Part shown: positions 3,001 to 9,000 of the stretch, piece after piece
Position numbering within the stretch: position 1 is the stretch's first letter
Layout of the letters: every line of letters begins with the position of its first letter
From: Gammaproteobacteria bacterium
Lineage (GTDB): Bacteria > Pseudomonadota > Gammaproteobacteria > SG8-11
Assembly (NCBI GenBank): GCA_031363085.1
Contig: JANLTU010000196.1
Span: 53,585 to 117,584 of the forward strand
Length of the DNA: 64,000 bases
Direction: 5' to 3'
Program-made: the position numbers

Positions 3001-6000
3001 GCGCACTGTGACCATGAGTTTTTCGATGACGTCGGTTTCGCTCACAATCGGATCCCAATCGAGTTCGAGGATCTTGGTGCGCCCTCCCGACATGGTCCGA
3101 GTGAATTCATGCACTAGGCAATGGCGGTTGAAATCGAACATCATCGACTCCTCACCCAGAATTGCATCCAATGCCGCAGAGATTTGCGACAAGGCATTGG
3201 AGCCCAGATTCGTGTTCCTGAACAGCAAGTCCATGACATCCGAGTTTGCGACATTCTTGTCTTCCACAATGCTCTCCAAATACGCGGAATACTCGGGATG
3301 AATCGCGCGTCCGGGTAAAATCGTAAAGATGCCCTGGTGCATGTTCTGCAACATGTTATTAATGTCATTGGTCTTCTGTCGCAGTTCGGCGGTGCGGCTC
3401 TCGACTTTTTGCTCCAAGGTGCGATTTTGTTCTGCAATCACATTCAGCATGTGAATATTCTTGAAACTGACCACGGCGGTGCGTGCAATGGTTTCGGCAA
3501 ACTCGCGATCCGAATCGACGAATTTTACGTCGCCGACATCGCCGCAGAAATTCATGACGCCGAAAATCTCATTATTGTCGACCATCGGCACGCAGATAAT
3601 GGCTCGCGCCGAGGCATCATCGCCTAGCTGCGCTTCGAACTGATGATCTTGCGTGGTGTCCGGAATATAAATGATGCGTTTGTGTTGCGCCGCACGACCG
3701 GCGACACCCTCACCGAGCTTGAAGGTGCGCGCGTCGTGCACCGCGCTCTCGTCGCGCGCCGGCGAGTACGCTTTCACTTCCAGTAAGCTTTTCTCCGCGT
3801 TAAACAGGTAGACCGAGCCCCACTCCACATCGCAGTGAGCACGCATGGTCTTCAACGCATGCTCCAGAACTTTCATCGGATCATGCATGCTCGCCATGGT
3901 CTGGCCGGTCACATTGAGCACGCGCAGGTCATCGATCTTCTTCCTGATCGCATCGCGCATGTCGGAAAAACTGTGTGCCAAGCTGCCCAGCTCATCGCTG
4001 CGCCGCGTGTCGATTTCTTGATCCAGATGACCGTGCGCCAGTTGCGCGGCACTGGTTTTCAAGGCGTCAATCGGCGTGAGAATGGTACGTGTCAGGAAAA
4101 ACCCCACCATCACGGCGCAGACCATGCCCAGCATGATCAGCCCAGCCACAATATATTGGGTGTGGCTCACCTGAAGGGTGAGCTGCGAGCTGCTTTCGAC
4201 GCTGAAATCGTGCTGGGTCTTGACCAGTGCAGTCAAGCGATCCTGAATTTGCAGCACCAACGGCGATAAATCTTTGCGAATGATGTAAGCATCCTGGCGC
4301 CAGTCTTCGGCGCCATGGATTTTCATTACTTGCTCGGCGGCCGGCCCCCACTCCTTGAACGCCGCGTTGAAGTTTTCGAACGACGCTTCTTGCTCAAAGT
4401 TCAGCAGGCTTTTGCTGGCACCGTTGAGCTTGCTTGCATCACGCACGGCCAGCTCCATGTAGCTGCGAAAATTCTCTTTGTTGGCGTCGGCACGGAACGC
4501 AAGAAAAATGCGTAATTCGTTCAGGGCGCTGGCGACATTGGTACGTAACGAAAACATATCCAGCAGGAACTGACGACGCTCTTGGTTGGCACTCTCACCG
4601 CTTTCTGCCAACAGCATTTCTTGCAGACTTTGCAACATGGTCTGCGCACGGGGATTCACTTCGCGGCTGGCAAACCCAAGCGCCGGAACGTTCTTCGCGT
4701 CATCGCTGGCAAACACCAGCATCTGCTCCTTATAGCTTTGCAGTTTGGCAATGCCCTGCTGCACTTCGTCGACCATTTTGAACGTCGCCGCGTCGTCTCG
4801 CACAATGCGCATCGCGCTCAAGGTTTGTACCGACTGCGTGATCTTGCTCAAATTACTGACGTAGTCGTTTTTGTGCACCTGCTCCTTGCTGAGCAAATAA
4901 AAACCCAGCGAGGCGGAAGCGCGATCCAGTTGATCGACCAAGTTAAGCGACAGTTCCGTGGCGGGTTGGACGTCGTTCACCAACGTGGAAAGTTTTTCCT
5001 TGTTGGCCTTCAGGCTGTTGAACGCCGTGATGCCCACCGCGACCAACAGCACCACCAACACGCCGAAACTGACCCAGATTTTTTTACGAATGGTGACTTT
5101 ATTCATCAACGCATGGACGTGAAATAACACCGCCATCCAGCGGTGAGCAAAAGGCGTCTTCGGCTGTAGACCGCTGCCGGGGGTAGTTTCCAATGTGTTT
5201 GCGTGCATACCGCAGTTGCTCCCAGAGTCAATTTCTATGACAAGCCCACTGCGCTCGCCACGGCTATGACCATTGCTTTAAGTCGTTAACCGGCAACCAT
5301 CTTCTTCACGGTTTCCAGCACGTTCGCGCCGTTGAACGGTTTCACGATCCAGCCCTTGATGCCGGCGGCTTTACCGCGTTGCTTCATGTTGGCGTCGCTC
5401 TCGGTGGTCAGCATGATGATGTTGACCGTCTTGTTGCCGACATCGCTGCGGATTTTTTCGACCATCGTCAATCCGTCCATATTGGGCATGTTGACGTCGG
5501 CGAAAATAAGTTTGATATCCGGATTGCTCGATGCCTTGGCAAGACCGTCTTTGCCGTCCACCGCCGTGATCACCGAGAAGCCATTGGTGCTGAAAAATCC
5601 GCTCACCTGACTGCGTACCGCGTCGGAATCATCGACCACCAGAATTTGTGCCATAGTTAAATCTCCGCTGATAAATCAAGTTTTTTTAAGCCACATCTTT
5701 ACAATAACTTACTAAAATAGTTCCAGTTCGCCGGACGACACCAGTTCGTTAACGCTCTGGTTGGACTCGGCATATTTCTCCGGCGACCAGTCCAGGCTAA
5801 AAATGAATTTCTCGTACATCACCACCGGCTGGAGCTTGCCCTCCGGATCGGTGAGCGTGAATTTGAAACACAATTGCGGATCGTCGGCACCGAACGAAAT
5901 ATATCTGCGCGCATGATTAATAATAATCGGCACTTCGACGCGCATCCGCCCGTGTGCTTCGGCCGTCGTCGACCCGTAACGGGTTTTGAATGCACCCCAG

Positions 6001-9000
6001 ATCATGTTCGCCAGTTCCGACAGCAGTTCGTTGACGTGGCGAAAGCTAGGCTCGACGGCATGGAGCTGGGTCTTACGCGCGGCAATCGCGGCGCGAACGT
6101 TTTCTTCTTCCGATTGCAGTGTCATGTAACCGCGGCACCAAGCGCTTTCCAGCGGTAGCAGACTGAACAGTTCTCCGTAAATGATTTTGTCTTTTACAAT
6201 GTAGGGCGGGTCGACCTCGACATTTAAACCCTTGAAGGCGGCACGGAACGCGCTCAGCGTGAATTCCTTCACGCCTGCCACGAATTCGTTGGGATAGTGA
6301 CGATTGAACAAAAACGTATCCACTAGCTCTTTCAGGGGCTCGAATTCACCGTGCACATAAACGCCGGCGATCACGTTGCGCAATTCGACCGGCAGATCGC
6401 CGACCGCCATCTGTGCATCCACGCGCAGAAAAATCGGTAGCTCGGCGCGGGCCTTGTGAATTGCCAGCGCCAGCTCGACCTCTTCGCGTCCATGGCCGTC
6501 GCTATGCGACAGAAAGATTGCGCCCAGATCAACGCTGCGGCTCAAAATGCTCAGCACCGTGCTCTTGCTCGCTTGATAACCATCCAGGTTGGAGTTTTCG
6601 ATAAATTTTTTCAGCGCACGCAGCTTGTCTTTGTCGTGTTCGACGACTACAACTTTGCTCCGTATTCCGTGCTGCTCTGCAGGCGGCTGTGTCGACACCT
6701 TGATCGTGGCGGTTAAATTCATACGGTCCTCTCGAAGTATGGGTTATTCAAAATAGCTCCAGTGCCCCGGCCTCAACCGGTTCTTCCACTTTTTGCAGTT
6801 TGTCCAAACGAAATTCGCGCGTGCTGTACACCGAGACGAACAAACTCGCGCAAAAGGTGGTTTCCTCGTTTGCTTGTGCACTGACGTGAGTATCGTAAGA
6901 AAACGACAAACTCTTGAGGTGTTTGAGACTCTCTTTGCGCAAGCGATTTGGCGTAGACATCCCCATATGCGGAAAGCAACTGCCCAGATCGCGCTTAAAA
7001 GCGCCGCAAAAACGGTTGCCCAGCTCACCCAGAAAATCGTAGTAACGCGCTGTGGTGAGTTGCTCCAGCGGCATCCGCAAGGCGTCGGCCGCATAACGCA
7101 GAGAAGGTGCGCTGCAAGTTGAATGCAGCAGCACAAAAATACGGAAGTCGTACGACGATATTGTCAGCATGGTGAATTCCGGCGCGGCCACCTGCTCTGG
7201 ATTAGTCAAGGGCTGGAGGGTCCATGACGCGTAGCTGTCGGTCTTCAGCGACTCCTCCAGACTGTCAGCCAGCAGCTTGGCCAAAGAATCTTTCGCGGTC
7301 TGTGGAAACGCTGCCGGGGCGGGCGTCATGACGGCTCCTGAAGTCCAAGTTGATCCACTTTGGCATTAAGCGCGTGTACCGCCGTCAGGATCATCTTGCC
7401 GCTGGCTTGAATGTCTTGAAATGTTGCGATAGTGACCGCATCGCTTTTATGCAGGCAGTCCTTGTAGCCGGCACTGAATGTTTCCGAACGCGTCGCCAAA
7501 GATTTTACTTCGGAGGCCACTACCGCGAAGCCGCGCCCGGCTTCACCGACACGCGCCGCTTCGATGGTGGCGTTCAAGGCGAGAATAATGATTTGTTGCA
7601 CGATTTCAGCGAAATCGGCGTTGCGTTGCTGCATCACATTGTTGGACTGCACCAGCTTGCCCATGCCGTCGTTCCAGCGCTCGATGCTTGACAGGATCGT
7701 CAGCAAGTCGGTTACATCTTTTTTAATCCCGGCGCGGCAATTTTCGATGCGTACTTGGTGCTCGGAAACTGTGCGCTCCAAAGCGCGTTGGCTGTGTGCG
7801 TAATCGGCGCGCAAAGTAATGAGTTCCTGTTCGCGCGCGGCTGTTTCCGCGCGCGCCTGAGCCAGTCGTGCGACGTACACGGACTCCGCGTCGCGGACGA
7901 AACGCACATGAGCCTCCTGCATATTGTCAAGCTCAGTCGCCGGAACTTTTTTGGACAATTCATCCTGTAACTGCGCACGCTCCGACTGCCACTGCGCTTG
8001 CAGACGCGGAATATAAATCCTGCGCCAGAGAACCGCGCTGAATACTGCGCCGACTGCGATACCACCTACCCATGCCAGCATGATGCTCATTACTTAGTGT
8101 TCTTCAGGTGCCACAAATTTTCTTCCGTCGGATGCTTCGACATGCTTGTCGGAGATGCACTTGCCATCCTGCAATGCACAAGAACCTCGCCCCAGCCAAG
8201 GACGGAAGCTCTCGTCAAGATATCGACATGAGGAAAAGAAACTAAAGCTCTTCTTGTTGACCTGCGTACTGCTGCGGATCAGGTGTTACCTGCCGGGTGA
8301 AGCCTGCTATGGCGCGCGGCGAAACTTTTTCCGCACTTTGCATTTGGGCGAACTCTGGATTTATGGGCGTGCCCTTAAGTCGGTTCGAAGCGGAGGTGGC
8401 TTACAGCGGAAAACGACGGCGGATAACCAATGCGCCGCACAACGCAGCAATAAATAAAACACCAAAGGCGCCGGTGGCAACTTTATCGTTGTCTTTGTTG
8501 ACCGCCTTAAGTTGCAATGGCGCCAAGCTCGCGAATTCAGAATCTGCGGAACTCGCCGCGCTCAGAGTAACGATGTATTGCACATCACCGTCAATAACAC
8601 TGTCGTCCACCCCAATGACCCGCACGGTTTTGGGCCGATCCCAATCTTCGGTGGTAAACGTAAGTCCTCTGGGAGCTACGGTCCCTTCCGTCGCCATTGA
8701 GCTGGTCAAAGAAATATTCACGTCACCTGAGGGCTCTTTGTTCAGCACCACGGTAAAGGCGGCTACACCGCTACTTTCACTGGTTACTAAAACCTCTGGG
8801 GCAACAACGATAATTTTCGCCGCTTTTCCGTTGGGTTGTACCGGCTTGTTGCCGATATCGAGATTGACCAAACCAACTTTCAATACGGGAAGCATCCGGT
8901 AATTTGCATCGTCGCTGTCGGTGGGGTCGATCAACACGTTGTAGGCGACATCGCCATTCGCGAAATTATCATTTACACCGGTGACGGTTACCGTTTGTGC

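Follow-up and report, generated by a model that had tools for sequence, protein, structure and literature searches.

The DNA analysed here is a window of 64,000 nucleotides (contig JANLTU010000196.1, positions 53,585 to 117,584, assembly GCA_031363085.1) from a gammaproteobacterium of the SG8-11 lineage, on the minus strand of which five genes run in the same direction and encode proteins of 254, 193, 336, 122 and 1115 amino acids. Two of these, the 336-residue protein (5712-6722, minus strand) and the 193-residue protein (6748-7329, minus strand), are predicted CheX-type phosphatases of phosphorylated CheY (CheY-P) and terminate in closely similar peptides, ...LVSSGELELF and ...VEAGALELF, respectively; examples of the tail peptide from the two putative phosphatases are EEPVEAGALELF and NELVSSGELELF. 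This shared tail, GELELF in one protein and GALELF in the other, was picked out in an original prediction made from the DNA alone, together with the core motifs LSELANMIWGAFK and LGELGNRFCGAFK; both features are present in the translations, and each core motif holds the catalytic E-x2-N of CheX. Only these two among the 402 window open reading frames (ORFs) of at least 50 residues end in [LMIV]E[LMFIV]F, where 0.027 would be expected from composition.

The 336-residue protein, referred to here as REC-CheX, is composed of a pseudo-receiver, a CheX domain, a C-terminal helix and the tail, as delineated with Pfam, AlphaFold 2 (AF2) and Foldseek. It scores 43.2 bits against Pfam CheX (PF13690), where the cutoff is 27, and its AF2 model, with a predicted local distance difference test (pLDDT) value of 81, is matched by Foldseek to receiver (REC) proteins and to the CheX structures 3hzh_B, 1xko_B and 1squ_B. 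The CheX domain spans residues 145-312 (5787-6290, minus strand), and its profile aligns the active-site helix with that of the solved CheX-type proteins 3iic and 6vpw. The catalytic E236-L-A-N239 (E-x2-N; 6006-6017, minus strand) lies within this domain, and all 81 sequences retain E236, N239 and P265. An amphipathic helix at residues 314-329 (5736-5783, minus strand), seen both in the AF2 model, where pLDDT falls along it, and in the alignment with the consensus ..V-D-D/E-L-V.., leads into the tail G331-E-L-E-L-F336 (5715-5732, minus strand), which has a pLDDT below 50 and is followed by the stop codon at 5712-5714. The protein matches 1377 homologues, and database names of homologues are just 'chemotaxis protein CheX' or 'hypothetical protein'.

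The N-terminal domain of REC-CheX (residues 21-137; 6312-6662, minus strand) adopts a (beta-alpha)5 fold, as indicated by AF2 and hhalign, and had been described in the original prediction as a receiver with a degenerate phospho-acceptor context. It is indeed a pseudo-receiver. In an hhalign comparison with the CheY protein encoded next to it (probability 67%), His73 falls at the position of the acceptor Asp, and the same column in 81 orthologues holds Glu in 70, Asp in 4 and His in 2, while the column equivalent to T87 is an invariant Arg. The aromatic residue of beta5 is retained as Y122 in 75/81 orthologues and as Phe in 6/81. The domain has no Pfam Response_reg match at E<=1, and its assignment as a functional PF00072 receiver was rejected, since the fold is receiver-like but both the acceptor Asp and the conserved Thr/Ser are replaced.

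The 193-residue protein, here called small CheX, scores 17.4 bits with Pfam CheX, below the same cutoff, but has a clear CheX fold in its AF2 model (pLDDT 86). Foldseek ranks 1-12 in the PDB are all CheX or CheC-like (3h2d, 3hzh_B, 1squ, 3iic, 6vpw), template modelling (TM) scores to CheX structures range from 0.55 to 0.74, and the ranks that follow, as far as 34, are occupied by the CheC/FliY/FliM family. The catalytic D98-x3-E102-x2-N105 (DFLGELGN; 7015-7038, minus strand) is invariant at D98, E102 and N105 in the family alignment. The tail, G188-A-L-E-L-F193 (6751-6768, minus strand), lies within a segment predicted to be disordered (residues 182-193); across 75 orthologues, nothing else in the last ~30 residues is conserved. 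Thus, the two proteins are CheX family members by fold and catalytic motif, as the original prediction had it, and not members of an unrelated fold that fails the CheC/CheX/FliY profiles. The E-x2-N of Borrelia burgdorferi CheX corresponds to E96/N99, a pair that inserts into the CheY phosphorylation site (PMC12887009). With E-x2-N kept and the CheX fold predicted, both proteins are likely to be active CheY-P phosphatases. NCBIfam has no model for either protein. A second small CheX of 187 amino acids, which scores 31 bits with Pfam CheX and ends in GGIEFF, is found ~9 kb from the cassette in a member of the Oleiphilaceae (L021:330-893, minus strand), indicating that extra tail-bearing CheX copies exist.

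The proposal that the two proteins are paralogous holds for the CheX fold, which is seen in both AF2 models, whereas their sequence kinship is only remote: BLASTP aligns them with 28% identity across 109 residues (E=0.01), and hhalign of the two families yields E=0.0027 with a probability of 11%. Judged by sequence, they are remote paralogues only, and the segment of highest similarity between them is the tail itself.

The tail was expected in the original prediction to be conserved if it mattered, and essentially all homologues keep it. Across 81 REC-CheX sequences, its positions hold Gly in 81, Glu in 77, Leu in 80, Glu in 74 and Asp in 7, Leu, Phe or Met in 50, 29 and 2, and Phe in 80, so that the Gly, Leu, Glu and terminal Phe are as invariant as the catalytic Glu, Asn and Pro; the residues other than Glu at position -5 are Ala, Asp or Ser. 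Of the best 120 homologues of the 336-residue protein, with identities down to 43%, 116 end in G-[EDAS]-L-E-[LFMI]-F; among the departures are the truncated P0002 and P0078 and two sequences with one substitution each (EHELF, ELEEF). The small CheX tail is likewise kept in 76/77 loci, and all of the 26 homologues of the 193-residue protein have a variable linker followed by a terminal G-x-[LM]-E-[LMF]-F. An exhaustive HMMER search for the REC-CheX family returns only 288 clusters at 50% identity, which makes the family sharply bounded, and most full-length members among the 150 representatives listed, divergent ones included, retain the tail.

At every tail position the full set of synonymous Gly, Leu, Glu or Phe codons is in use, which indicates that it is the peptide, and not the underlying DNA, that is under selection; for the same reason, the tail conservation was rejected as the trace of a nucleic-acid element (DNA or RNA), for instance a terminator or a downstream ribosome-binding site. 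The 12-residue linker that precedes the tail is variable in sequence yet acidic in both families (net charge -3.0 and -3.5), and linker and tail together carry about -5 to -6. AF2 leaves the tail disordered in both models. The combination of invariance, disorder and a variable charged linker is the signature of a short linear docking motif, and we conclude that the tail, G-[E/A]-L-E-[L/F/M]-F-COOH, is probably a docking peptide. This role had also been put forward in the original prediction and best accounts for a tail that combines invariance and disorder with a variable acidic linker in front and that also occurs on a third protein family.

The remaining three genes of the cassette encode a miniature methyl-accepting chemotaxis protein (mini-MCP), a CheY and a sensor kinase. 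The mini-MCP (254 residues; 7326-8090, minus strand) consists of an N-terminal transmembrane helix, a variable coiled coil and a conserved MCP hairpin-tip region, and its Pfam MCPsignal match (63.7 bits) covers residues 161-213 only. Conservation is limited to the hairpin-tip region, at about residues 130-235, and the C-terminus, ...QLGLQEPS, is not conserved. The mini-MCP and small CheX genes overlap by 4 nucleotides, the stop codon of the first overlapping the start codon of the second (ATGA, 7326-7329), which suggests translational coupling. CheY (122 residues; 5286-5654, minus strand; Pfam Response_reg, 84.6 bits) is the most conserved cassette protein, with 60-91% identity across loci, and its closest solved structure is Vibrio cholerae CheY4 (4h60, E=1e-25), both having a Trp at the beta5 switch position (Trp102 in the cassette protein).

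The kinase (1115 residues; 1861-5208, minus strand) has the architecture 4HB_MCP-HAMP-GAF-(600-770)-Hpt-CheA-type P4 ATPase. Pfam identifies its Hpt and HATPase_c domains, and phmmer against the PDB recovers the CheA P4 domain (E=3e-30) and, weakly, CheA P1 (E=2e-3). No match to a CheW domain (P5) is found in the Pfam and PDB searches, and the protein stops ~25 residues past P4. Between GAF and Hpt, at residues ~600-770, the kinase contains a conserved domain of ~170 residues for which neither Pfam nor the PDB offers a sequence match; all cassette kinases have it, irrespective of their N-terminal sensor.

A scan of one genome per species finds a relative in 392 species and supplied the 80 genome loci to which the locus counts refer. 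The hosts include Burkholderiales (Burkholderia pyrrocinia, B. stagnalis, Aquabacterium, Rhodoferax, Curvibacter, Leptothrix) and Rhodocyclaceae, as well as Oleiphilaceae, Hahellaceae, Pleionea, Methylococcales and SAR324. The gene order mini-MCP, small CheX, REC-CheX, CheY is kept in nearly all 80 loci, REC-CheX and small CheX always occur together, and the adjacency of mini-MCP and small CheX survives where gene order is rearranged (L024 and the SAR324 loci). A kinase is always nearby, but where it lies, which way it is oriented and what N-terminal sensor it has differ among loci; only residues ~600-1115 are conserved, and the GAF domain is not. Clustering of all ORFs in the 80 loci leaves just five conserved families, with no CheW, CheR or CheB among them. 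With neither CheW nor P5, the cassette falls outside the canonical chemosensory systems. The searchable literature yielded no account of it or of its tail, and GELELF and ELELF gave noise only.

Beyond the two CheX families the tail is rare. Among 7665 mechanically defined ORFs from ~1.3 Mb of loci, 158 end in the motif, and nearly all of these are the two CheX families. A third family is represented by a 381-residue protein encoded directly downstream of REC-CheX in a SAR324 locus and ending in EEEEEEEAVAGELELF. Members of this family (P0291-P0297) have a receiver-like N-terminus, a C-terminal domain with an invariant SDQDRRCFFG motif, and a poly-Glu/Asp linker followed by SGELELF, and they adjoin the cassette directly downstream in two contigs of SAR324/Deltaproteobacteria (L016:11026-12171 and L089:5057-6205, plus strand). 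Five of the six full-length members end in a poly-acidic linker and SGEL[EQ]LF or SGTTELF; a member remote from any cassette ends in SGDLDDLV. The 381-residue family has no Pfam match and, with an hhalign probability of 5.7% against REC-CheX, was rejected as a hidden CheX. Its presence on an unrelated family indicates that the tail is a portable module, separate from the CheX fold.

A divergent REC-CheX subfamily, which is located outside any cassette on its contigs, ends in the hydrophobic G-x-V-x-F-L (representatives P0197 and P0194; L084:8001-8945 and L086:339-1295, plus strand). These orphan tails fit a partner that every phosphatase needs, that is, a CheY-like substrate. On contig L084, a gene for a 635-residue multihaem cytochrome-like protein begins 1 nucleotide downstream of the orphan. 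In Aquabacterium and Curvibacter, GGDEF diguanylate cyclases ending in GDVELF or MDVDLF are encoded ~9-10 kb upstream of the cassette (L040:3-671, L081:9-686 and L062:14-763, plus strand). Since ~1.4 matches among the 7665 ORFs would arise by chance alone, these tails are not counted as evidence; they may be due to chance or may hint at a cyclic di-GMP output.

The tail receptor that we favour, with a confidence a little short of even, is the cassette CheY. Both CheX-fold proteins, predicted CheY-P phosphatases, belong to a self-contained five-gene signalling cassette, where the disordered acidic linker and the C-terminal peptide would bring them to one shared site, a site that the third, unrelated protein would occupy as well in the SAR324 relatives. 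On CheY, the acidic-hydrophobic tail would attach to the basic alpha4-beta5-alpha5 face around Trp102, such that tethering of enzyme to substrate would lower the effective Michaelis constant (Km), as the CheZ C-terminal peptide does on Escherichia coli CheY, and the E-x2-N helix would then enter the CheY active site and catalyse dephosphorylation. Residues 86-122 of the cassette CheY, which comprise alpha4-beta5-alpha5, carry a net charge of +5.6±0.8 in 78 orthologues, a crude figure that derives from sequence segments and not from surfaces, and the highest 37-residue net charge in the other four cassette proteins is +2.3. The same region of E. coli CheY has a net charge of about +1. Near-invariant positions in the CheY segment are M90, K91, R93-G98, K100-F107, K117 and K118. 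This segment is the face of CheY to which both the CheZ C-terminal peptide and the FliM N-terminal peptide bind (PMC3774744).

Several observations weigh against CheY as the receptor, in addition to the crudeness of the charge figure. CheY4 of V. cholerae, the nearest solved relative, fails to bind the N-terminal peptide of FliM and was predicted not to bind CheZ (PMC3774744), so that docking would differ in detail from the CheZ mode. In small CheX, the CheZ/FliM-like V-D-D-L-V helix is missing and just G-x-L-E-L-F is shared, and the tightest gene linkage, that of mini-MCP followed by small CheX, fits the mini-MCP as a hub equally well. The two tails have the same penultimate residue, Leu in 26 loci and Phe in another 26, with Leu and Phe paired in 5, an agreement that is consistent with one shared receptor but confounded by phylogeny. 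Mutual information between the penultimate residue (Leu versus Phe) and columns of CheY, mini-MCP, the kinase core and both CheX proteins peaks at 0.5-0.7 bits everywhere; these values are dominated by phylogeny and do not discriminate between partners.

A serious rival, close to what the original prediction envisaged though in our view less probable than CheY, is that the tail is a scaffold address by which the phosphatases and the third family attach to the mini-MCP or to the kinase core (residues 600-770, Hpt or P4), so that phosphatase activity is localised at the signalling complex. Recruitment of this kind is known for CheZ at CheA-short and for Bacillus subtilis FliY at the motor. Because neither CheW nor a kinase P5 is present, the conserved tip of the mini-MCP needs another binding partner, and the retained adjacency of the mini-MCP and small CheX genes, together with their 4-nucleotide overlap in the window, would suit such an arrangement, as would a kinase core (residues 600-1115) that is always present nearby and the convergence of three different tailed proteins on one hub, which is typical of scaffolds. 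However, neither the mini-MCP nor the kinase core has a matching conserved basic segment (maxima of +1.7 and +1.9 versus +5.6 for CheY), and the orphan REC-CheX proteins and third-family members keep their tails on contigs that have no neighbouring mini-MCP or kinase, genes that may lie elsewhere in the genome. The GAF domain, in particular, is an unlikely partner, as the N-terminal sensor region of the kinase, GAF included, is not conserved among cassettes.

Assembly among the tailed proteins themselves, where the tail would bind the alpha4-beta5-alpha5 face of the pseudo-receiver or add a strand to a CheX dimer, appears improbable; so, to the same degree, does the corollary that docking on the pseudo-receiver would bring about autoinhibition or recruitment of small CheX. 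The pseudo-receiver keeps the receiver fold and the beta5 aromatic (Y122), the two paralogues always co-occur and solved CheX proteins are dimers (PMC12887009), but neither AF2 model places the tail against its own chain (pLDDT below 50), the pseudo-receiver region lacks a basic character, the tail of small CheX is under equal constraint in a protein without a receiver, and the same tail occurs on an unrelated family that is not CheX. We consider it most unlikely that the tail is a general signal from outside the pathway, whether it mimics a sliding-clamp motif or serves as a C-terminal degron for a tail-specific or AAA+ protease. Hydrophobic C-termini can act as degrons, and ELELF fits four of the five positions of the sliding-clamp-binding consensus QL[SD]LF, but a general signal should mark many unrelated proteins, whereas in the ~1.3 Mb of loci the tail is confined to cassette proteins, with the lone exception of the GGDEF family, which is within chance expectation, and the genes linked to the cassette include none for a protease or for replication. 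The clamp motif was rejected on its conserved Gln at position 1, which is absent from the tail, where position -5 is Glu in 77/81 sequences and otherwise Ala, Asp or Ser.

Phosphatases of CheY-P are usually tethered, CheZ through its C-terminal peptide and to CheA-short, FliY to the motor and CheC to CheD; for CheX-type enzymes, we know of no tether. As read from sequence, the cassette would present CheX-type phosphatases with a conserved, portable C-terminal docking peptide inside a widespread, uncharacterised CheW-less module. The tail is as strictly conserved as the catalytic residues and occurs on two divergent CheX paralogues as well as on a third family, in a cassette that spans hundreds of beta- and gammaproteobacterial species, strains of the Burkholderia cepacia complex included, plus SAR324. 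It offers an experimental handle on the module, and a [DE]-rich linker followed by G-x-L-E-[LFM]-F-COOH provides a signature for genome searches for module components. More speculatively, and with lower confidence than we attach to CheY and slightly lower than to a scaffold as the docking site, the GELELF tail and its receptor site could constitute a new, dedicated peptide-address system that recruits unrelated effectors, namely the two CheX proteins and the 381-residue SAR324 family, to one hub. Were this true with the mini-MCP tip as the hub, it would be a mirror image of the tether between NWETF and CheR/CheB, and it would explain how a receptor tip works in the absence of CheW or P5.

Immediately upstream of the cassette, the window encodes a secreted protein of 1470 residues with many tandem repeats of ~100 residues (8401-12813, minus strand), the counterpart of which on contig L001 has matches to M4 (thermolysin-like) peptidase, FTP and InhA-like MAM domains; this gene is not conserved beside the cassette in other genomes. 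Large ORFs with no Pfam match at E<=1e-5 (563, 377, 718 and 397 residues) lie at 15057-16748 (plus strand) and 23715-27785 (minus strand), the 563-residue product being rich in Ser, Thr, Pro, Ala and Lys in its C-terminal half. Between them, at 16940-21680 (minus strand), is an ordinary ABC-transporter operon (ABC_transp_aux/DUF4340/ABC-2 permease/ATPase) that is unrelated to the cassette.

Compared with canonical CheA-CheW-MCP systems, the cassette shares a CheA-type Hpt (P1) and P4, an MCP hairpin tip, CheY and a CheY-P phosphatase, but lacks CheW, CheR and CheB, and its MCP is reduced to ~250 residues. In contrast to CheA (P1-P5), the kinase has no P5 and no recognisable P2 or P3, and has a transmembrane sensor of its own, 4HB-HAMP-GAF in the window and other N-termini elsewhere. 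The CheX proteins of B. burgdorferi (3HZH), Thermotoga maritima (1XKO) and Vibrio vulnificus (6VPW) have the same alpha/beta fold and long helix with E-x2-N, and their genes are likewise linked to CheY and a CheA-type kinase. The solved proteins comprise ~150-159 residues, which leaves no room for a C-terminal extension, whereas small CheX adds ~26 residues of acidic linker and tail, and REC-CheX adds the N-terminal pseudo-receiver, the C-terminal helix and the tail.

Receptor pentapeptides have the consensus x-W-x-x-F with an essential Trp and dock CheR and CheB. The tail resembles NWETF/GWEEF in its position at the extreme C-terminus, its terminal Phe, the Glu at -3, the flexible linker and the chemosensory context. 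The analogy with NWETF-type pentapeptides that accompanied the original prediction nevertheless does not hold up: those peptides are borne by receptors and recruit enzymes, whereas here the peptide is borne by the enzymes and the mini-MCP has none; position -4 is Leu (80/81 in REC-CheX), or L/M/I more broadly, and never Trp; and neither CheR nor CheB is conserved with the cassette. A looser parallel is offered by the C-terminal tail of SSB (DDDIPF). Streptococcus mutans WalK has a C-terminal tail with a Trp among acidic residues (PMC9087282). These tails are, like the one described here, disordered and acidic, with a key aromatic residue, and dock a partner, but the proteins, motifs and partners all differ, and the analogy is one of principle only.

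The closest likeness is to CheZ, the E. coli protein ending in ...QVDDLLDSLGF (1KMI_Z, residues ~200-214). In both cases, a CheY-P phosphatase, here a predicted one, finishes in a flexible linker and then an acidic-hydrophobic peptide with a Phe-COOH end, and the REC-CheX consensus V-D-D/E-L-V-x-S-G-E-L-E-L-F resembles the V-D-D-L-L-D-S-L-G-F of CheZ. On the other hand, CheZ is a helical bundle and does not have the CheX fold, the invariant core G-x-L-E-L-F is not a CheZ motif, and searches of Pfam and NCBIfam give no CheZ match. By analogy, we suggest that the tail may work most like the C-terminal tether of CheZ, a likeness that does not extend to homology.

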